A stretch of DNA of 64,000 nucleotides from Candidatus Hodarchaeota archaeon (GTDB lineage: Archaea > Asgardarchaeota > Heimdallarchaeia > Hodarchaeales > Hodarchaeaceae): assembly GCA_016840035.1 (NCBI GenBank), contig JAEOTC010000154.1, positions 8,952-72,951 on the forward strand, in the 5' to 3' direction. The translations under genes were made by a program, and so were the position numbers. Below, in pieces: positions 24,672 through 34,043 of the stretch (position 1 is the stretch's first letter; each line of letters starts with the position of its first letter). The notes beneath the pieces were generated by a model, which had not been told where the DNA came from, searched no databases, and worked only from the letters and a program-made list of their open reading frames with translations.

Positions 24672-25700
24672 TTAGATTTCTGGTTCTTCAGATATTTTCA
24701 CAATAAGTTTTCCTTTGTTTGATCCGTCAAATAACTTATTAAGAGATTTCGGTGCGTTTTCCAATCCTTTTACGATTTCTTCTCGGTAAATTAGTTTCTT
24801 GGATGTATACCAGAGATGTAAATCCTTGAATGCTTCGTCCATTCTCTTAAAGTAATCAGTTACAATGAATCCCGAAACGGTAGCTCGTTTGACTAAAATA
24901 TTAGCAAAATTGTAAGGACCCGCAATTCTTTCTGTTGCATTATATTGAGAAATTAATCCACAGATTACCACACGAGAATGAAGATTCAAATTTCCAAGAG
25001 CTGCATCCAATATTTTTCCTCCCACATTCGCAAAATAAATGTCTATACCATCAGGTGCTAGTTCCTTTAAACGATTGAAAACAGATTCTGTCTTATAATT
25101 GATAGCTGCATCAAATCCTAATTCCTGTGTTAACCAATCACATTTATCATTAGTACCTGCAATTCCGATCACCCGACAGCCTTTGATTTTTCCAATTTGA
25201 CCAACCAAGGAACCCACTGCCCCTGCAGCTGCCGATACGACAAGAGTGTCATCTTCTTTAGGCTTACCAATATCTAATAGACCAAAATAAGCAGTTAATC
25301 CAATCATTCCAAATAAATTAAGAAAATTAGGTAGAGGAACACCAGGAAATGAAGGAAGAATATTCATCCAACCTGAACCATCACTAATGAAATAGTCTTG
25401 CCAACCAAGCAACCCTGTAACCATAATCCCTTCCTTAAACCGTGGATTCTTGCTTTTTATAACTACCCCAATTCCAATCCCTCTCATCACACCTCCTATC
25501 TTTACTGGTGGTACATAAGTTTCAACAGGATTCATCCAACCTCTATTGGTTGGATCAAGAGATAAATAGATATTCTTAACAAGAAATTCTCCTGATTGTA
25601 ACTCAGGAATGTCGGTTTCAGCCAGTTCAAAATCGGATTCCTTCGTTAAACCTATTGGCCGTTGCTTCAAAAGCCACTGACGATTGATTTTAGCGGTCAT
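24672..25700 (-). CDS. NADP-dependent oxidoreductase (MDR, prostaglandin reductase/CurA family)
   Basis: YLSLDPTNR, GLTAYFGL, VSAAAGAVGS, CGLISQYN, GKLIVK. Confidence 0.92.
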   Translation of the reverse strand: MTAKINRQWLLKQRPIGLTKESDFELAETDIPELQSGEFLVKNIYLSLDPTNRGWMNPVETYVPPVKIGGVMRGIGIGVVIKSKNPRFKEGIMVTGLLGWQDYFISDGSGWMNILPSFPGVPLPNFLNLFGMIGLTAYFGLLDIGKPKEDDTLVVSAAAGAVGSLVGQIGKIKGCRVIGIAGTNDKCDWLTQELGFDAAINYKTESVFNRLKELAPDGIDIYFANVGGKILDAALGNLNLHSRVVICGLISQYNATERIAGPYNFANILVKRATVSGFIVTDYFKRMDEAFKDLHLWYTSKKLIYREEIVKGLENAPKSLNKLFDGSNKGKLIVKISEEPEI

Positions 25701-25845
25701 CTTTATTACTTCAATTAGATAGATATGAAGAGATTTCGAAGAATTATCTATATCTATTCCTGAGATTTTCCCCTGAAAACCCCAGGGCTAGTATTGCCGT
25801 ATAATTTGCTAGAATGTGGTGTGTGGGGTTCCTTTTCCCAGAAGT

Positions 25846-25898
25846 AAAGATTAATAAATATACAAAATCTGTATTTAATTACGTAGTATTGGAGTGAT
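25846..25898 (+). promoter_or_regulatory. BRE/TATA-like element and Shine-Dalgarno of the small ORF heading the conjugation operon
   Basis: Purine-rich AAAGA followed by TTAATAAATA (25851-25860); GGAGTGAT at 25891-25898, 5 nt before ATG 25904. Confidence 0.55.
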
Positions 25899-25903
25899 AT
25901 ACA

Positions 25904-26008
25904 ATGCCTCGACCAGTTAAAAGAGTAGACACAGAATCAAAAGAAAAAGCAACGGAAGATGCAGAAAAGAATAAAGACACAGTTCCCATTTCGAAACATT
26001 ATTCTTAA
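25904..26008 (+). CDS. Unannotated 34-aa charged peptide MPRPVKRVDTESKEKATEDAEKNKDTVPISKHYS; candidate modifier/substrate of the downstream JAB-E1-E2-E2 operon
   Basis: Translated by hand (below the ORF-track cutoff); ATG..TAA in frame; strong Shine-Dalgarno; 41 nt upstream of the JAB gene on the same strand. Confidence 0.7.
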   Translation: MPRPVKRVDTESKEKATEDAEKNKDTVPISKHYS

Positions 26009-26049
26009 CTTAGACTTTTATCTATTTTTAATCCACATAGGGGATTTAT

Positions 26050-26991
26050 TTGTTGTATTCGCATCAAGAGGAGTCCATTTTCATCCAAATTGATCAGAAT
26101 ACATATGATGAGATGATTAATGAAGGCCTTCTTTGGCCACAAATTGAAACAGGTGGAATGCTATTCGGGAATATCATCGAAGAGGAACAGAATCTTGTCA
26201 TCAAGATTCAAAGAACTTATATCCCTTCAAGTGAAGATTGCATACGTGAAGCTGCGTATTTTGAAATAGAACCTGAATTTGCAAAAATGATTCTCTCTCA
26301 GGAGAGTCTTAAGTATTTGGGCAACTGGCACAAACATCCTGGATATGGGGGGCCTTCTCAAGGTGATCGAAGGCAAATTCAAGATTTTTTTGGGAATAAT
26401 CCCCATCTAGATTTTGTTTTAACATTTATCCTTAACTTCCATTCCGATGCTTTTATTGAACCTATAATTGAGACATATTTTCGGACAGATGAGAATCTAA
26501 ACTCGGGCCATTCATTTCTAACTCGCTATATCCCTCAAAGCAATCTCATATTCATTCCTTCACAATTAGATGAGCCTAAACCAATAATCCAAACCAGTGG
26601 TATTCCAAATGCATTAATATCTCGAATAAAACAAGAACTTGTAAATCTTTTTGATCATCTTTCTTCCATTGAAGAAATCCAAGAATTTCCTGGGCAAACT
26701 CCCGATGAGAAAGTTATTTCCTTTCCCTATACGGTTTTAATTCAGCAAGAAAAAGTAAACATTTTAATACTGATCTCATTTCCTCCTGAATTTCCTAAAG
26801 GAAAAATATATTTTGATATCTCCTCAGAGGATATGTCTAAAGACATTACATTTAAGACTCATCCAGCAGAGACGTTAACCGATCTAGAACTTGTGAGTCC
26901 ATTCTTAGAAGTGCTTAAATCTGATATCGAGCATGATATCCCAGTGCTATTGGAAAAACCTCTCTGGAGAGTTATGCGAGAGAAACTGTGA
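26050..26991 (+). CDS. JAB/MPN+ (JAMM) metalloprotease fused to a C-terminal RWD/UBC-like domain
   Basis: ETGGMLFG...YLGNWHKHPGYGGPSQGD (E..HxH..S..D intact); C-terminal ILISFPPEFPKG resembles the UBC FPxxYP motif, with no Cys in that domain. Confidence 0.88.
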   Translation: MLYSHQEESIFIQIDQNTYDEMINEGLLWPQIETGGMLFGNIIEEEQNLVIKIQRTYIPSSEDCIREAAYFEIEPEFAKMILSQESLKYLGNWHKHPGYGGPSQGDRRQIQDFFGNNPHLDFVLTFILNFHSDAFIEPIIETYFRTDENLNSGHSFLTRYIPQSNLIFIPSQLDEPKPIIQTSGIPNALISRIKQELVNLFDHLSSIEEIQEFPGQTPDEKVISFPYTVLIQQEKVNILILISFPPEFPKGKIYFDISSEDMSKDITFKTHPAETLTDLELVSPFLEVLKSDIEHDIPVLLEKPLWRVMREKL

Positions 26992-28238
26992 ATAAAATGA
27001 AATTCTTACTTTACCCAGAACTGGAGACTGAATTAGCTAATCTTCCGCTCAAGGAAAAGATTTTTCCATTATTTGGAAGAGTTTTTGATGATTTTACCGT
27101 ATTTCACTTTGTTAGTATAACATCTGATATGAAATCTCTTCGACAAATTGGATATATCTCGAATAGGGAAACTATTACTGATTTTACACTTGATTTTCCA
27201 TTCATTCACCTGATAGTTGATACAAAACGTCTTGAAGTTACGAAGATTGCCATCCATAAGAGTCAAGATGATATTGAAATTATAAGAGAATTTGATATTG
27301 AAAAAGTAGATTTAAACAGATTATTTGTTCGAGTTGATAAAGCAGAAACTCCATTAAATTTACTTCAAACAAAAACTGTAGCTATTATCGGTATGGGGTC
27401 GGGTGGTTCTTTACTCGCTTTATATCTTGCGAAAACGGGAGTTAAGAAATTTATCCTCATCGATGATGATCGTCTTGAGGTTCACAATATCATTCGCCAT
27501 ATCTCTGACCTTTCACACCTCGGGAGATTTAAGACTAAGGTAGTGGAAGAATATATTGGTGCAAGAATACCAGATATTGAAATTCAAACCCTAGAACAAA
27601 AATTCGTGATACATACTCGAAAAGATGCAGAGTTTTTTTTGAATTTACTCTCCGATGTGAATCTGCTAATTGCGGTTTCAGGAGAACACGATGTTAATTT
27701 TGCTATAAATGATTTTGTACACATTAATAACTTAACCTTACCAGTTATTTATGCTGGTACATTTGATGGGGTGAAAGGGGGCTTAATGTTTAAAGTGGAT
27801 CCACGGAAAGATGATATCTGCTATCATTGTGTATATGCCGATTCTTTTGCTTATCCCTTGACAGACAAAGAGTTAAAAAGCGATATTCCGACAACTACTG
27901 AGTTAGAAAAGAAAATTGTTTACGACCGAACCATGCAGGAACAATTAGCACAACCAGGATTGGGATTAGATATTGATAATTTGACGATTTTTCTTTCGAA
28001 ATTCTGCATAGCTACTCTATTAGACGGACAAGAACACGGTTTATACCGTTTTCCTTTTAATTTTTATCTCTGGTATAATAGAAACGTATTCCAACCGGAT
28101 TCAGATGAAATTAAGTTTGAAGGCCTTGAACTTCTCTATTATGAGGACTTAGAGAAAAATGCTGAATGCCCCTTCCATGGAGAGCAGGTTAAAGCAACTT
28201 TGAAGGACAGTGATGAAGGGAACTCCCCCTCATTATAG
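26988..28238 (+). CDS. ThiF/MoeB/E1-family adenylyltransferase with an extra N-terminal domain
   Basis: VAIIGMGSGGS, IDDDRLEVHNIIRH, GRFKT, CYHC...CPFH Zn ligands; 4-nt overlap with the JAB gene. Confidence 0.9.
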   Translation: MNKMKFLLYPELETELANLPLKEKIFPLFGRVFDDFTVFHFVSITSDMKSLRQIGYISNRETITDFTLDFPFIHLIVDTKRLEVTKIAIHKSQDDIEIIREFDIEKVDLNRLFVRVDKAETPLNLLQTKTVAIIGMGSGGSLLALYLAKTGVKKFILIDDDRLEVHNIIRHISDLSHLGRFKTKVVEEYIGARIPDIEIQTLEQKFVIHTRKDAEFFLNLLSDVNLLIAVSGEHDVNFAINDFVHINNLTLPVIYAGTFDGVKGGLMFKVDPRKDDICYHCVYADSFAYPLTDKELKSDIPTTTELEKKIVYDRTMQEQLAQPGLGLDIDNLTIFLSKFCIATLLDGQEHGLYRFPFNFYLWYNRNVFQPDSDEIKFEGLELLYYEDLEKNAECPFHGEQVKATLKDSDEGNSPSL

Positions 28239-28261
28239 TTTATAATTAAGGAGAAAGTTTC

Positions 28262-28696
28262 ATGTCACTTCGTGGGAATTTAATCGATAGGGAAATAGAA
28301 AAATTAAGCAAAATCTTTCCCGACATTCAAAAAAGAGACTTTCTACAACTTAAGAATAAAAATAAGTGTGTTCAGGTTAGTTTTCTCACAACTGGGAAAT
28401 ATGCATGTGGGCATTTTGATGTTCTCATTGAGTTCCCATACAATTATCCAGTTGGTTCACCACTCGTCTGGGTTCAAAAACCCAAAATTCCTAAGAATAC
28501 TCCACATGTATACGGGTGGGATAAAGAGGGACACGCAAGTATTTGTTATCTCCGACCTAAGAAAGACTGGCGTTTAAACTATAGCTCATATGAAACGGCA
28601 CTGATGGTAGAAATTTGGCTTAAAACTTATTGTAGATGGACTAAAACTAATGTTTGGGATTGGCCAGAAGCAGGGGTACTTGATCATATATTTTGA
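28262..28696 (+). CDS. Ubiquitin-conjugating E2 (UBC-fold) protein, paralogue 1
   Basis: Y..G.F.VLIEFPYNYP..P.VW; PHVY in place of HPN; ICYL (Cys95); downstream Trp. Confidence 0.85.
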   Translation: MSLRGNLIDREIEKLSKIFPDIQKRDFLQLKNKNKCVQVSFLTTGKYACGHFDVLIEFPYNYPVGSPLVWVQKPKIPKNTPHVYGWDKEGHASICYLRPKKDWRLNYSSYETALMVEIWLKTYCRWTKTNVWDWPEAGVLDHIF

Positions 28697-28708
28697 GCTT
28701 AAAGATGG

Positions 28709-29122
28709 ATGAATTTAATGAGACGAACCGTCGAAAACGAATTACATGAATTAAAGGGTGTATTTCCAGGTTTAACACGTAAGGATTTCTATTATTTAGA
28801 CAATGGAAATATTGCGGTTCAAGTCAAGTATGCAACAACTGGACAGTACGCCCACGGTACATTCACCGTGCTCATTGAATTTCCCCATAATTATCCGAAC
28901 GCTCCTCCGCGAGCATGGATTATGGAACCAAATATTTCAAGTCGTACACACCACATATACGGTCGGGATGAATACGGACATACTGAAATCTGTTATCTTC
29001 GTCCTCAGAAAGACTGGCACTTCACATTTACCTCTTATGATGCTGCAATCATGATTCAGACTTGGATTTGGGCTTATTGTCGATGGCGTAAGGTTGGTAT
29101 TTGGGATTGGAAGGAAGCCTAG
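28709..29122 (+). CDS. Ubiquitin-conjugating E2 (UBC-fold) protein, paralogue 2
   Basis: VLIEFPHNYPNAPP, HHIY, ICYL (Cys95); gap-free alignment to paralogue 1. Confidence 0.85.
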   Translation: MNLMRRTVENELHELKGVFPGLTRKDFYYLDNGNIAVQVKYATTGQYAHGTFTVLIEFPHNYPNAPPRAWIMEPNISSRTHHIYGRDEYGHTEICYLRPQKDWHFTFTSYDAAIMIQTWIWAYCRWRKVGIWDWKEA

Positions 29123-29260: not shown

Positions 29261-30118
29261 TTGCTGATGAAGGAAAAACGTAAATTCGGAAAAATTATGA
29301 CTACTACGATATTTCTTTTCTTAATTTTCAATGTGATTTATTCTCATCAAGTTGGTGCTTTCGATGCTTCTCATTTTCAAATTGGAATTAATATTGGTGA
29401 CACCCATACTTTGGAAATTTACTATATGTACGCTCCAGACTCCCCATTAGAAAGCGGAGCAAAAATGTACTACAATGTCACTAATATTACTGTGGATACC
29501 TGTTATATTACAGAAACCATATTTTTTGCTAATGGTTCTTTATACCAGATACAAGACTATAATGATTCTCGAAGTGCTATTAATATGCCATTTTTCTATA
29601 CCACTATCAATGTTAGTCTTCTATATGAGAACTTTATGGCACCTGATTATTTTGTCTCAGTTGATTCAGAATTTATTTACATAGAACAATATACTAATTC
29701 ATCTGGACTCGTAACTGATGGAATTTATACTTTTCATGCAGCGACAGGATGGCTATATTCCTATGTAATGACAATGACCAACGATGGGACTCTCATGATG
29801 GAGATAGATATGAGAGATATCAACTATGATGAACCAGTAACCACAACTACAATACCGTTTACAACGACTACTGACCCAGAAACCTCAACTGAATATTCAA
29901 CATCAACAACTGAATATCCGACAACAACAGTCGAGGAAACAACCACTAGTGATGCTGAGACAACAGAAGAACCCACATCTGACGATTCAGATACAACCAG
30001 TGAGGAGAAAACCACATCTTTACCCACTACAATCCCAAGTATAAGTCCAAGTTCAGGAATTGTCAGCCTAGTAGTCATTGGAATCTTAGGTTTTGTTAAT
30101 AGAAGAAAGAGAGGATAA
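29261..30118 (+). CDS. Secreted surface protein with Thr/Ser/Glu-rich stalk and C-terminal anchor
   Basis: Signal peptide, TTT-rich linker, TM helix plus RRKR. Confidence 0.8.
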   Translation: MLMKEKRKFGKIMTTTIFLFLIFNVIYSHQVGAFDASHFQIGINIGDTHTLEIYYMYAPDSPLESGAKMYYNVTNITVDTCYITETIFFANGSLYQIQDYNDSRSAINMPFFYTTINVSLLYENFMAPDYFVSVDSEFIYIEQYTNSSGLVTDGIYTFHAATGWLYSYVMTMTNDGTLMMEIDMRDINYDEPVTTTTIPFTTTTDPETSTEYSTSTTEYPTTTVEETTTSDAETTEEPTSDDSDTTSEEKTTSLPTTIPSISPSSGIVSLVVIGILGFVNRRKRG

Positions 30119-30304: not shown

Positions 30305-31264
30305 ATGAATATCCAAGAAGCTGTTGAAGCTTGTGATTCAATTTTAACCGAGATTAAGAAATTTATTATCGGGAAAGATGATGTTTTAAAGCATGTTATG
30401 TTGTGTTTACTCGCAGATGGTCATATTCTATTTGAAGATTATCCAGGATTAGCTAAAACAATGATTTCTAGATCATTTGCTTCTGTTCTTGGATGTGACT
30501 TTAATAGAATCCAATTCACCCCAGATCTACTCCCTGCTGATCTTACTGGATCTGAAATTTACAATCAAAAATCAAACGACTTTGAATTTAAACCAGGTCC
30601 CTTGTTCGCTGATATTATATTAGCAGATGAAATTAATCGCGCTACTCCTAAGACTCAAAGTGCCCTATTAGAAGCAATGGGAGAATATCAAGTTTCTATT
30701 GGTGGTAAGACATATGAACTGATCAGCACGGAAAAACCATTTTTAGTAATCGCAACGCAAAATCCACTAGAGTTAGAGGGAACTTTTGCTCTTCCTGAGG
30801 CTCAAGTTGATCGATTTCTAGCTAAAGTCAGAGTAGGCTATCCTTCCAAATCAGACGAGGCAAAAATCCTTACTAATAGAATAAATCGGAAACAAAAGTT
30901 ATTTTCATTACCACAAATTATAACGAAGAAAACCTTTCGAGAAATGCAGAAAGCAGTTGAGATTATTTCCGTATCTGATGAATTGAAGGATTATATTGTT
31001 GATATCGTTAATTATACTCGACACGCTCCACAAGTTCGAGTAGGAGCTTCTCCAAGAGGATCTCTAGATCTAATGTCTTTAGCACGTGCAAACGCGTTAC
31101 TAGATGGTCGTGACTACGTTATACCGCAGGATGTTAAAGAGTTAGCTTCGCTCACATTATCTCATAGAATTATTTTGGATGTTGGATCTTATATCGCAGG
31201 TGCATCGTCTGAAGAGATAATTACAAGGATTTTAACGAAAGTTAAGGCTCCTAGGAAAGAATAA
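30305..31264 (+). CDS. moxR: MoxR-family AAA+ ATPase
   Basis: EDYPGLAKT, RIQFTPDLLPAD, ADEINRA, ATQNP, LPEAQVDRF, GASPR. Confidence 0.95.
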   Translation: MNIQEAVEACDSILTEIKKFIIGKDDVLKHVMLCLLADGHILFEDYPGLAKTMISRSFASVLGCDFNRIQFTPDLLPADLTGSEIYNQKSNDFEFKPGPLFADIILADEINRATPKTQSALLEAMGEYQVSIGGKTYELISTEKPFLVIATQNPLELEGTFALPEAQVDRFLAKVRVGYPSKSDEAKILTNRINRKQKLFSLPQIITKKTFREMQKAVEIISVSDELKDYIVDIVNYTRHAPQVRVGASPRGSLDLMSLARANALLDGRDYVIPQDVKELASLTLSHRIILDVGSYIAGASSEEIITRILTKVKAPRKE

Positions 31265-31266
31265 GG

Positions 31267-32151
31267 TTGATTTCGAAAAGGATTAACCCCCTAAAACGAA
31301 AAGAGATTATTCTCATCGTATTCTTACTCTTTAGTTTAGCGATATTTCAAATTACAATGGAATTAATTCATGGGAGAAGACAGGAAAGTCCAATCTTGAG
31401 GGTAAATTTTCCTTTTTTCGAATTATTTGCAATAGCGATTCCACTTTTCCTTTTGATTTGGATTCTCTTCAAGCTAGAGTTTCCTTTCCGTATATTTAAG
31501 CCCCTTTCAATTTGGGCTGTCTCGATGTTACTTATAATTGTTGTGACTTCATTTCTAACCAATGCTAATTATTCCCCAGGAAATTTTAATCCTGGTAACA
31601 CAACTACTATCGATACTACAATGATACCGCAGACCCTAACCAACCCCGAAACTGTCCTAACAGAATCCATTCCAGAACATATTGTACGGGATCCTCTTTT
31701 TAATTTGCCAGTTTTGCAGGATGTCCGGAATTTGTTACTTGTTTTTCTTATTCTAATATCTACTATCATAATTATTCGAACAGAAAGGAGAAAATCTATT
31801 AAGCAGTCTAAAGAGTCAGAGTCGGCCGAAAACGGTCAAAAGATACCCAAGGAGTTTGAAGGAGGACTAAAAAATATAATTGAATGCTATTATCAGACTT
31901 CGGATCACTTAGAAGGTCAGGGCGCGGATGATTCAGATCATTTAACTCCAAAAGAATTTCAGAACGATGTAAGTATTAGGCAATTAACTTCTGAAAATGA
32001 CTTCAATGATCTAACAAGCCTTTTTAATGAGGCTAAATTTTCAGAACATGATATTTCAGCGGATTCAGTCCAAAGAGCTAAATTTCTCTCCCAGAAAATC
32101 ATCTTTCAATCTTCTCACACAGAATTTGAACGAATGGAGGAAGAAGAATGA
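31267..32151 (+). CDS. Membrane protein with DUF4129-like C-terminal domain
   Basis: TM helices; TPKEF...LTSLFNEAKFS motif; in the MoxR operon. Confidence 0.75.
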   Translation: MISKRINPLKRKEIILIVFLLFSLAIFQITMELIHGRRQESPILRVNFPFFELFAIAIPLFLLIWILFKLEFPFRIFKPLSIWAVSMLLIIVVTSFLTNANYSPGNFNPGNTTTIDTTMIPQTLTNPETVLTESIPEHIVRDPLFNLPVLQDVRNLLLVFLILISTIIIIRTERRKSIKQSKESESAENGQKIPKEFEGGLKNIIECYYQTSDHLEGQGADDSDHLTPKEFQNDVSIRQLTSENDFNDLTSLFNEAKFSEHDISADSVQRAKFLSQKIIFQSSHTEFERMEEEE

Positions 32152-32747
32152 CTTTAGTAGATGAACTTCTTAAATATCTGTTCTCATTCAATTTTTATAT
32201 TTTTTTATGGATCCTATTAGTTATTCTGACCTTCTTTCTTCTAAGAAGGCTTCTTAGTGATTATAAACATAAAAAGATGGTTGAAAATTCAAGAAAACTT
32301 TTTGAATCTGAAAATCCCGATATGAGACTATCTGAAATCCAGTTTTATTTAGAGAGAGAAAACAATTTATTGGAAGAACGCTTTAAAAAGGGCAAAACAG
32401 AACTGAAAGATGATTCAGCAAAAAATAGTTTGTTGTTTCGAAGAATGTTTAGCCTCACAAACTCCCAAACTCCTAAGAGAGAGTTTGTTTTCCTATTAGC
32501 CTCTGAAATGAATAAAGTACGGAAAAGAAAAGAATTTTTGACTGATTCTCTAAGCTATGAGCTTAGTACATTTATTGATAATCCTGAAGACTGGGCTGAA
32601 CGTTTTATTATCTTTACGCCTGACAAAAACCAACAAATCGCACAAAACCTCAAAGTCAGGGAGCTATTGCATGAATATCTGCATGAATTCATTGAAGTTA
32701 TGCAAATCCCCGAATTAAAGTTCTTTTCACTATTAAAACAGTCGTGA
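32148..32747 (+). CDS. Hypothetical membrane-anchored protein (MoxR operon)
   Basis: N-terminal TM helix; overlaps the upstream gene by 4 nt. Confidence 0.65.
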   Translation: MTLVDELLKYLFSFNFYIFLWILLVILTFFLLRRLLSDYKHKKMVENSRKLFESENPDMRLSEIQFYLERENNLLEERFKKGKTELKDDSAKNSLLFRRMFSLTNSQTPKREFVFLLASEMNKVRKRKEFLTDSLSYELSTFIDNPEDWAERFIIFTPDKNQQIAQNLKVRELLHEYLHEFIEVMQIPELKFFSLLKQS

Positions 32748-32756
32748 GATCATTCC

Positions 32757-34043
32757 ATGAACAATTACAAACAGATTTTATTCTTAACAACATCGTTACT
32801 AATAATAATTCTGCTTTCTTTGTTAACAGGAGTATCTGCTTTGACGGGAATCGCTTTACCAGTTTTATGTTATATTTTCTTCTTTCTACTGACTGAAGAA
32901 GTGGATATTGAACCGATCAAAGTATCAAGAATAATTTCATCTGATCGGGGTACTATAGGAGAAGAGATTGAAGTAACTTTAGTTATCAATAATACCGGGT
33001 CTGCTATCCCTCTTCTTGAGATTGTAGATTTAATTGATGATAAATGCACCATTTCTGCCGGTAGTAATCATTTGCAGGTTCAAATAGAGAAGAACCAGAC
33101 TATTGAGCGGAAATATTCATTGAAACTCCACCATAGGGGGAGGTACAAGCTGGGCCCTATCTTTCTAAAGGGAAGTGATCTTTTCGACAAAAAAACCAGT
33201 TACAGAGGAATCGATTTGGTTCAAGAAGTCACGTGTGTTCCTACTTTTATAAAACTTCAAACCCTCCCCATCTCGCGTGAGAAATTAGTTCCTCTGGGTG
33301 GATCAATTCCTTCGCGGATCTATAAAGGAAGAGATTTTGAATTTCAAGGAATTCGTCCGTATCAACCCAGTGATGAATTACGTTCAATTAATTGGAGGGT
33401 CACTGCAAAATATAATACATTAGCCACAAATGAGTATGCTCTAAATCAACAATCCCATATCACCATATTACTTGATCACACCCTGTCAACAGAACATCTA
33501 CTAGAAGTTTCAATAAAAGCAACACTTTCTATCGCAGAGTGGGGAATTCGACAGAGATCAAAAGTTGAACTGATTGCAATTGGAGATTATGTTATGTATC
33601 TTAAACCATCTGCGGATAAACGACAACTTCTATTAATTACTGAACGTTTGATTGATCTAGAGGCAATTTCTCCCCAATCAAAAGAGATATTAGAAGCCCG
33701 GATCAAAAACCGTGTTTATCACCGTCTGAATCATCCAGGAATGCTCTTCATAATCTCTCCCCTTTTAGATAAGACAATCAATGCATCTTGTAAAAAGATT
33801 ATAGAGTCACGAAATCGGGTAGTATGGGTCAACCCAACTCTCGATCGTGAATATGAACATATAAATTTGAAGAAATTATCCAAAAACCTCTCAAAGGAAA
33901 GAATTGAGGGATTTACGAATGTTCTTACTACACTTGTGAAAGTTAATACGATCTTTGATTTTGAAAAAGTCCCTAGATTCAATTGGTATCCAGAAGGCCC
34001 TGATTATGCGTCCTTGGGATCTCTGAAAAAGGTGAGCGTTTAA
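32757..34043 (+). CDS. DUF58 family (vWA-like) protein
   Basis: RGRYKLGP, EFQGIRPYQPSDELRSINWRVTAK. Confidence 0.88.
   Translation: MNNYKQILFLTTSLLIIILLSLLTGVSALTGIALPVLCYIFFFLLTEEVDIEPIKVSRIISSDRGTIGEEIEVTLVINNTGSAIPLLEIVDLIDDKCTISAGSNHLQVQIEKNQTIERKYSLKLHHRGRYKLGPIFLKGSDLFDKKTSYRGIDLVQEVTCVPTFIKLQTLPISREKLVPLGGSIPSRIYKGRDFEFQGIRPYQPSDELRSINWRVTAKYNTLATNEYALNQQSHITILLDHTLSTEHLLEVSIKATLSIAEWGIRQRSKVELIAIGDYVMYLKPSADKRQLLLITERLIDLEAISPQSKEILEARIKNRVYHRLNHPGMLFIISPLLDKTINASCKKIIESRNRVVWVNPTLDREYEHINLKKLSKNLSKERIEGFTNVLTTLVKVNTIFDFEKVPRFNWYPEGPDYASLGSLKKVSV

Follow-up and report, generated by a model that had tools for sequence, protein, structure and literature searches.

A 64,000-nt stretch of contig JAEOTC010000154.1 from the assembly of Candidatus Hodarchaeota archaeon (GCA_016840035.1; positions 8,952-72,951 of the forward strand), hereafter the window, carries a compact operon in which predicted enzymes of a ubiquitin-like conjugation pathway are preceded by a gene for a very short peptide. 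As the initial annotation had described, five co-oriented open reading frames (ORFs) follow one another within 25904-29122 of the window (GC content ~35-40%), with gaps of 41, -4, 23, and 12 nt, and specify the peptide, a JAB/JAMM metalloprotease, an E1-like adenylating enzyme, and two paralogous UBC-like conjugating enzymes, E2a and E2b (Table 1). The reported lack of a beta-grasp modifier, a RING protein, and a CD-NTase was borne out as well: the ubiquitin, ThiS, RING, and CD-NTase families had no match in the operon or its flanking genes (Pfam, with PADLOC for the operon genes), and scans of the operon genes yielded no E3, beta-grasp gene, or cyclase.

A strongly conserved peptide gene

Judged from its pattern of substitution, the small ORF is genuinely coding, is subject to strong purifying selection, and is the best conserved gene of the operon. 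Across seven Hodarchaeales loci compared by tblastn, the peptide is 85-100% identical, as against 43-66% for JAB, 55-71% for E1, 64-89% for E2a, and 72-97% for E2b at the same loci. In the DNA alignment of seven loci, substitutions in the peptide gene are concentrated at third codon positions, and the pairwise ratio of nonsynonymous to synonymous substitution rates (dN/dS) lies between 0 and 0.11, with dS ranging from 0.44 to saturation. The conservation is not explained by a known RNA, because an Rfam scan of 25600-26200 at E <= 1 returned no family; the third-position changes point to coding. We regard the peptide as almost certainly an integral, translated component of the system.

The peptide has no match in Pfam, NCBIfam, or Rfam, and its profile retrieves 45 clusters from a set of 5.8 billion proteins, all of them hypothetical and none with a Pfam domain. 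A 404-aa "member" of a peptide cluster proved to be an unrelated GspF-like protein, that is, a clustering artefact. Only two matches exceed 91 aa, namely a 92-aa ORF, which probably reflects an over-long start call, and a 118-aa protein that shares only the first ~20 residues.

The conserved body of the peptide comprises 33 residues and ends in Lys31-His32-Tyr33 (25994-26002), followed in the window by one extra Ser. At 33-34 aa, the peptide is too short for a beta-grasp fold, and it is probably unfolded or disordered. Thirteen of the 14 Hodarchaeales-type peptides end exactly at the Tyr; the exceptions carry Gly-Asn, Arg-Asn or, in the window, Ser. In the related peptides of Nitrososphaeraceae (see below), 4-6 variable residues follow Lys-His-Phe. 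Across lineages, then, the Lys-His-Tyr/Phe end is fixed and is succeeded by a variable tail of 0-6 residues, while the body of the peptide diverges. By analogy, this combination fits the pattern of a modifier precursor that is trimmed by its protease.

The TATA-like element ahead of the peptide gene is near-invariant across the seven aligned Hodarchaeales loci, with the remaining intergenic and farther upstream DNA being unalignable. Position 25846, where the region had been taken to begin in the initial annotation, is the start of this element, and no gene starts there. The T-rich tract behind the peptide gene is a possible partial or leaky archaeal terminator, which could yield more peptide transcript than enzyme transcript.

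Table 1 Features of the operon and ubiquitin-like loci elsewhere in the genome. Coordinates are those of the window unless another contig is named.
Feature	Coordinates	Strand	Remarks
TATA/BRE (B recognition element)-like promoter element TAAAGATTAATAAAT	25845..25859	+	~45 nt upstream of peptide start codon; putative promoter function
Ribosome-binding site GGAG	25891..25894	+	9 nt ahead of peptide ATG; invariant in 7/7 aligned loci
Peptide gene	25904..26008	+	34 aa; candidate modifier
T-rich tract	26016..26029	+	directly after peptide stop codon; T-rich in 7/7 aligned loci
JAB/JAMM metalloprotease	26050..26991	+	313 aa
E1-like adenylating enzyme	26988..28238	+	416 aa
E2a, UBC-like conjugating enzyme	28262..28696	+	144 aa
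E2b, paralogous UBC-like conjugating enzyme	28709..29122	+	137 aa
Ubiquitin-like ORF and ThiF-type E1	C184:73863-75070		
Ubiquitin-like ORF and ThiF-type E1	C3:2122-3922		two ubiquitin-like ORFs in tandem
Ubiquitin-like ORF and ThiF-type E1	C112:99468-100516		

Linkage and distribution of the cassette

The peptide is strictly linked to the enzymes. Among 83 sampled Heimdallarchaeia genomes, which are interrelated, so that the counts describe a pattern rather than a statistic, E1 is encoded in 14, all of them in the genus-level group of the window (13 of its 21 other members), and in none of the 62 genomes from other families. Twelve of the 83 genomes carry the peptide, each in a single copy and all among the 14 with E1, and a peptide profile search found it in none of the 69 genomes that lack E1. 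The two E1-bearing genomes without the peptide (G066 and G067) are accounted for by contigs that end inside the cassette; in a third genome (G064), an E1 fragment and the peptide lie at the ends of two different contigs. Wherever both genes share one contig, the peptide is encoded ~1 kb upstream of E1, and its gene is always just upstream of that for JAB.

In the wider databases, E1 homologues form ~68 clusters, nearly all labelled Hodarchaeales/Heimdallarchaeota, and the close homologues are all 386-437 aa long with ThiF as the only domain. A profile search of 1.84 billion representatives returned a tight core of ~17 (E < 1e-79) and a broad cloud beyond. In the Nitrososphaeraceae, E1 is present in 14 of the 151 sampled genomes of the family, at loci that encode JAB, E1, and one E2; directly upstream lies an ORF of 52-54 aa which aligns with the Hodarchaeales peptide. 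Common to the peptides of the two groups are Met-Pro-Arg at the start, three lysines that do not vary, and Thr-[Val/Ile]-Pro-x-x-Lys-His-[Tyr/Phe] at the end. Each of three further core lineages likewise has a small ORF ahead of JAB, ending in Gly-Lys-His-Tyr plus Ser-Ala (L040), Thr-Lys-His-Tyr plus Arg-Gln (L039), or Thr-Lys-His-Tyr plus a six-residue tail (L041/L042). At homologous loci of two archaeal phyla, and of further metagenomic lineages, the upstream scan thus recovered the small ORF; none of the homologous cassettes has a beta-grasp gene.

Peptide, JAB, E1, and E2 are the only families conserved between loci. Clustering of all ORFs of 17 loci that measure 100 aa or more showed JAB, E1, and E2 alone to be common to them, and the flanks differed except between the closest relatives. 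In the window, the flanking genes encode an oxidoreductase, 2-oxoacid dehydrogenase subunits, a DUF998 membrane protein, a Thr-rich surface protein, and a MoxR/DUF4129/DUF58 set; no defence genes were found in the flanks within the window, and the flanks vary between loci. The initial annotation had named antiviral defence or proteostasis as a possible role. The patchy occurrence of the cassette (13/21, 0/62, and 14/151 genomes), its self-containment, and its presence in two unrelated phyla suggest an accessory, horizontally spread stress or antiviral module. Set against such a role are the housekeeping nature of the window's flanks and a scan with the E1 profile in which no relative was found on viral contigs.

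Two of the neighbouring regions deserve description. The 285-aa ORF at 29261-30118 opens with a signal-like segment at the N-terminus, continues with a long stretch rich in Thr/Glu/Ser, and closes at the C-terminus with a hydrophobic anchor whose end is basic. It probably encodes a surface glycoprotein bearing an archaeal sorting signal, lacks a Pfam match, and is not kept beside the cassette at other loci. Farther downstream (30305-34043), a co-oriented set encodes a MoxR-type AAA+ ATPase, a DUF4129 protein, a 199-aa ORF, and a DUF58 protein. In L001 and L002, the closest relatives, the first three of these genes are likewise conserved behind the cassette; the DUF58 gene formed no cross-locus cluster.

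Small ORFs also accompany bacterial relatives of E1. In an Anaerolineales locus (L019:3854-4033) and on a metagenomic contig (L044:5446-5619), hydrophilic ORFs of 57-59 aa, without a Pfam or NCBIfam family, adjoin E2 and E1, and both end in Arg-Trp-Phe. The Anaerolineales locus also encodes JAB and continues with an SPFH/Band-7 protein and a HerA-like ATPase, and a WD40 protein, a STAND-like NTPase, and an HTH regulator are encoded near the small ORF of the metagenomic contig. Two Kiritimatiellae loci (L022:4333-9526 and L023:4256-9530) consist of JAB, E2, a 62-66-aa ORF, and E1, and the gene immediately behind E1 encodes an 867-aa double AAA+ unfoldase of the ClpB/ClpA type; the small ORF has the conserved end Glu-Gly-Phe-Ala plus a variable tail of 2-3 residues. 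This arrangement may represent a pairing of tag and unfoldase.

Enzymes of the cassette

The assignment of the third gene to the ThiF/E1 family by the initial annotation is confirmed by Pfam (ThiF, 6.6e-23) and by the Cap2-type E1-E2 profiles of PADLOC (2.5e-26); in sequence searches, the E1 profile matches ThiF (2.1e-12), Cap2 (~4e-12), MccB (~8e-11), and PaaA (1e-10). The structural model (predicted local distance difference test score, pLDDT, 72.6) comprises a beta-rich N-terminal domain (aa 1-110) and a single adenylation domain (about aa 111-403; residues 115-402 in the model), for which VIA-align returned MoeB (Z 23.6), UBA5 (23.5), UBA3 (23.4), MccB (21.6), Atg7 (21.3), BubCD (9ea5_A, 20.3), Cap2 (20.0), PaaA (19.9), and BilD (8tyz_A, 17.4). 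A whole-length match of E1 to Atg7 (3vh2_A, residues 4-407) was discarded as unusable (root-mean-square deviation, rmsd, 18.4). The N-terminal domain has no assignable fold; hhalign gave E 0.27 against the JAB domain, no support for regarding it as a "dead MPN", and E 0.48 against the E2 profile.

The nucleotide loop GMGSGG (135-140), the Arg-Leu-Phe-x-Arg motif, and a Zn site formed by CYHC (278-281) and CPFH (394-397) are conserved in E1, in which the only cysteines are those at 278, 281, 340, and 394. Disorder is predicted for the crossover loop (about 282-327), in which none of 18 + 12 aligned relatives has a Cys. A Tyr in this loop, Tyr312, is kept in Hodarchaeales, Nitrososphaeraceae, and bacterial relatives (Anaerolineales and Kiritimatiellae, 26-31% identity). 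In BubCD, a homodimeric JAB-E1 fusion, Tyr370 is the only invariant loop residue and its mutation abolishes conjugation (PMC11601596). JAB and E1 are also fused in a soil metagenome (L039, 132-2162), where a single 676-aa protein is preceded by a Lys-His-Tyr peptide gene, in parallel to the bacterial BubCD.

JAB matches Prok-JAB in Pfam (2.6e-07) and the JAB profile of PADLOC (2e-11). Its JAMM residues E33, H94, H96, S103, and D106, which the initial annotation had taken to be intact, are invariant in 13 orthologues from two phyla, and from these metal-binding and catalytic residues the MPN+ domain is predicted to be active. In the model (pLDDT 84.6), this domain spans aa 1-178 and is followed by a C-terminal alpha/beta domain (aa 184-313). 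A search of PDB sequences with JAB gave no match at E <= 1, and its kinship is drawn from the fold search: VIA-align placed the MPN+ domain closest to Cap3 (9ild_A; Z 14.9, rmsd 2.3, 135 residues aligned), followed by PfJAMM1 of Pyrococcus (14.4), Rpn11 (14.4), BRCC36 (13.9), the Rpn11-like 6fju_B (13.8), BilC (8tyy_B, 13.1), and BubCD (9ea5_A, 12.0).

The C-terminal domain of JAB consists of a helix, 4-5 strands, and a long helix, without Cys. Its structural matches, Tsg101 UEV (Z 6.3) and others at Z 6-7, are weak and lie in the noise band of the tool. Against the E2 profile, hhalign gave E 0.012, centred on a Phe-Pro-x-x-Phe-Pro flap motif, and pre-computed "faint" RWD matches of the relatives' JAB proteins point the same way. 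The domain may plausibly be a Cys-less E2/UEV-like domain; between Hodarchaeales and Nitrososphaeraceae, it shows no similarity (hhalign E 0.3).

Both E2s retain the catalytic Cys, as had been claimed for them. They score 24.7 and 17 bits against Pfam UQ_con (E2b, 1.9e-05), below the gathering score of 27, and are matched by the E2 profiles of PADLOC (E2b, 3.8e-09; E2a, 6.7e-08); PF26395 (E2-CBASS) is pre-computed on E2s of the relatives. An alignment of 18 E2s, covering both paralogues as well as the single E2 of Nitrososphaeraceae, shows no variation at His82, Cys95, the Tyr-Pro-x-x-x-Pro flap, or an Asp-Trp. The best PDB sequence matches are the eukaryotic Rad6/Ubc2, which are weak (E2b). 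E2a always ends in a His-hydrophobic-Phe/Leu tail, Asp-His-Ile-Phe in the window (28682-28693), to which Arg-Gly is added in two relatives (L005 and L008); E2b has no C-terminal tail, and one E2 of the distant locus L040 ends in Gly-His-Phe-Thr. The E2a tail resembles the Lys-His-Tyr/Phe end of the peptide; it may dock in E1 or JAB as a mimic of that end, or serve for self-conjugation.

Proposed peptide conjugation and competing explanations

On balance, we lean towards the view that this cassette, the E1, E2, and JAB of which are related to those of the Cap2/Cap3, Bil, and Bub systems, conjugates the disordered peptide in place of a protein with the ubiquitin fold. As the product of the leading gene of the operon, the peptide would possibly outnumber the enzymes, given the T-rich tract behind its stop codon. 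JAB, by analogy with BilC, would trim the tail after Tyr33 (one Ser in the window, 2-6 residues elsewhere), leaving the Tyr carboxylate exposed. E1, for which a homodimer is predicted as in its structural relatives, would adenylate this carboxylate, much as Cap2 acts on the CD-NTase. Tyr312 may then hold the peptide as an oxyester, as in BubCD, or the E2 Cys may attack the adenylate directly; either way, Cys95 of E2a or E2b would take up the peptide as a thioester and deliver it to target lysines. Since no E3 is encoded, the E2s would recognise the targets themselves, and JAB would also remove the tag from them. Adenylation, E2 charging, and target attachment are all proposed here by analogy.

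The other conjugation genes of the genome bear on what E1 could activate. The assembly (4.3 Mb, 87% complete) encodes four other ThiF-type E1s, three of which have a PF00240 ubiquitin-like ORF at most a few hundred bases away (Table 1). The fourth (C230) has no adjoining ubiquitin-like ORF and, from its strong full-length ThiF match, is probably MoeB-like. The E1 of the window is the only one in the genome with the peptide beside it instead of a ubiquitin-like ORF. Since three separate loci combine a ubiquitin-like ORF with an E1, several predicted conjugation systems coexist in this archaeon; because the ubiquitin-like ORFs adjoin their own E1s, a modifier acting in trans on the enzymes of the window is less likely.

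We also co-folded two E1 chains with ATP, Mg, and residues 1-33 of the peptide. The interface score ipSAE (interaction prediction score from aligned errors) was 0.41 (individual runs 0.38, 0.41, and 0.47), and the best of three controls reached 0.00; the runs agreed in at least 54% of contacts, and the partner pLDDT was at least 40. The mark applied is reached by 58 of 80 solved complexes and by 2 of 110 mismatched pairs, and scores of 0.60 or below among those passing comprise only 7 of the 80 solved complexes and both passing mismatches; the result was classed as "weak support". The result, given without contacts, is compatible with E1-peptide binding, and entry of the Tyr end into the adenylation site is conjectural. 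The claim of the initial annotation that the peptide is the conjugated modifier stands in part: it is favoured by the conservation, the linkage, the Lys-His-Tyr/Phe end with its variable tail, the position of the other ubiquitin-like genes beside their own E1s, and the precedents of Cap2, which accepts a disordered tail, and of BubCD, a Cys-less E1 with a catalytic loop Tyr, and the co-fold lends it weak support.

Several points weigh against peptide conjugation. E1 pockets normally accommodate Gly or Ala; for them, a C-terminus that is bulky and aromatic is out of the ordinary. The equivalence of Tyr312 to Tyr370 of BubCD is one of loop position and not of residue-level alignment, and the E2 fold is predicted from profile matches below the Pfam threshold. 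A co-fold pass in the weak class is rated by the tool as correct less than half the time, save where the guess had been probable from the outset; a search for longer forms found no fused or tandem peptides, as would mark a cleaved modifier; and five ThiS-family and four ubiquitin-like ORFs elsewhere in the genome are possible modifiers in trans.

The last three of these points would equally suit a peptide that is a non-covalent cofactor, adaptor, inhibitor, or specificity subunit of JAB, E1, or E2, with the enzymes conjugating a beta-grasp protein (SAMP, ThiS, or ubiquitin-like) from another locus or, in the manner of Cap2 with the CD-NTase, some other protein's C-terminal tail; the His-hydrophobic-Phe tail of E2a, in its resemblance to the peptide end, indicates that protein tails could be substrates. 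We nevertheless consider such a role unlikely, given that the ubiquitin-like ORFs adjoin their own E1s, that no locus has a second conserved partner gene, and that the cassette is kept together as a unit by two distant archaeal phyla with differing repertoires of other ubiquitin-like proteins; moreover, mere binding hardly explains a fixed Lys-His-Tyr/Phe end with a variable tail.

The similarity of E1 to MccB and PaaA raises the further prospect that the peptide is the precursor of a ribosomally synthesised and post-translationally modified peptide (RiPP), the C-terminus of which would be modified by the E1-like enzyme, as by MccB (microcin C) or PaaA, to give a small product, with JAB as the maturation protease. 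The E1 profile indeed matches these enzymes about as well as ThiF and Cap2, their folds are recovered too, E1 has an extra N-terminal domain where MccB has its peptide clamp, and the peptide is short with a conserved C-terminus. However, one or two E2s with invariant Cys and His, which have no role in such chemistry, are always present, and no transporter, immunity, or tailoring gene is conserved at any locus. The peptide is also long for a RiPP, highly charged, and conserved over its entire length including the N-terminal Met-Pro-Arg, unlike a leader-plus-core precursor, all of which renders this explanation quite improbable. Least credible of all, and very improbable in our view, is an acceptor or decoy that is modified on its lysines K6, K13, and K31 or competes with substrates for JAB or E1 as a regulator: these lysines are invariant across both phyla and a small acidic-basic peptide could serve as a sink, yet E1 would still need a carboxylate donor, no other being encoded, and the fixed C-terminal end with its variable tail would be left unexplained.

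Peptide conjugation, our preferred explanation, would have no exact counterpart among the recognised prokaryotic kinds of such systems, namely Type II CBASS (an antiphage signalling system based on cyclic oligonucleotides)/Pycsar/MBL, Bil I/II, and Bub I/II. The cassette departs from each of them in at least one defining feature, in that an E2-E1 fusion, a cyclase, a beta-grasp protein, a Cys domain, a Ser-E2, and DUF6527 are all missing from it, yet it shares enzyme folds with all. We found no description of a peptide-type E1/E2/JAB system in the literature.

Closest by profile are Cap2 and Cap3 of Type II CBASS (also Pycsar and 6A-MBL). E1, JAB, and the E2s are all nearest to Cap2/Cap3-type profiles, JAB being of the Cap3 type, and the NCBIfam 6A-MBL family cap2_3 is the best named match for JAB and E2a and second after ThiF for E1, all far below the cut-off. 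Both systems do without an E3, and the moiety activated by Cap2 is not a beta-grasp protein but the disordered C-terminus of CD-NTases (bioRxiv 10.1101/2022.03.31.486616). Here, however, E1 and the two E2s are separate genes, whereas Cap2 is an E2-E1 fusion; a cyclase, CD-NTase, or MBL enzyme is lacking and the "tail" is a free-standing peptide; the crossover loop of E1 has no Cys, in contrast to the catalytic Cys of Cap2; JAB has an extra C-terminal domain; and the hosts are archaeal.

With Bub (6E; PMC11601596), the cassette shares a minimal E1 with a Cys-less crossover loop and a conserved loop Tyr, equivalent by position, as well as a JAB directly before E1 (fused to it in the soil metagenome lineage), and BubCD matches both enzymes structurally. 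Bub differs in having beta-grasp ubiquitin-like proteins (BubA), a Ser-E2 working through an oxyester, where the present E2s have Cys95, and the DUF6527 serine protease BubE; neither a beta-grasp nor a DUF6527 gene had a Pfam match in the operon or flanks, and the loci have no further conserved gene. In Bil, JAB (BilC) trims BilA to expose its reactive end (bioRxiv 10.1101/2023.09.26.559546). The four-part Bil cassette (BilABCD) of modifier, Cys-E2, JAB, and E1, likewise without an E3, is one in which JAB pre-processes the modifier C-terminus and E2 is thought to pick the targets. Unlike the peptide, which ends in Tyr, BilA is a beta-grasp protein ending in Gly, and the Bil E1 combines an inactive and an active adenylation domain with a mobile Cys domain, as opposed to the one adenylation domain without a catalytic Cys seen here.

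The canonical archaeal ubiquitin operons (Caldiarchaeum, Asgard) are comparable in the Rpn11-like fold of JAB and in E2s nearest to Rad6/Ubc2; the present operon differs from them in lacking ubiquitin and a RING E3 and in having an E1 of the minimal bacterial type. The adenylation domain is similar to the RiPP enzymes MccB and PaaA; no transporter or immunity gene is conserved at the cassette loci. In its use of a short disordered tag instead of folded ubiquitin, the proposed pathway would resemble Pup of actinobacteria, for which the glutamine-synthetase-like PafA acts as ligase on a side-chain carboxylate, without E1 or E2. Pup ends in Gly-Gly-Gln/Glu, as opposed to Lys-His-Tyr, and a PafA-type ligase was not seen in the cassette, although no dedicated search for one was made.

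A broader reading, plausible but held tentatively, is that a whole clade of minimal Cys-less (tyrosine-loop) E1s, together with Cys-E2s and JABs, tags proteins with short peptides devoid of the ubiquitin fold. Its hosts would include Asgard archaea, ammonia-oxidising archaea, and some bacteria, and the peptides would end in Lys-His-Tyr/Phe in archaea and in Arg-Trp-Phe or Gly-Phe in bacteria.

Known E1-E2 tagging systems attach a folded beta-grasp protein or, in the CBASS type, a whole enzyme by its tail, and Pup relies on a different ligase chemistry. If peptide conjugation is confirmed, the free 33-residue peptide would be the smallest E1/E2-borne tag known, and E1-E2 chemistry would be independent of the beta-grasp fold. 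A mixed chemistry, with a tyrosine-loop E1 as in Bub and a Cys E2 as in Bil and ubiquitin, would form a mechanistic link between the bacterial families, and a three-residue recognition end that leaves a His-Tyr remnant on lysine would offer a compact orthogonal tagging tool. Because the cassette resides in a genome of Hodarchaeales, the archaea placed closest to eukaryotes, which also has true ubiquitin loci, the finding bears on the number of conjugation systems that existed before eukaryotes, and would add a second, peptide-based "ubiquitin-like" code beside true ubiquitin in their close relatives.

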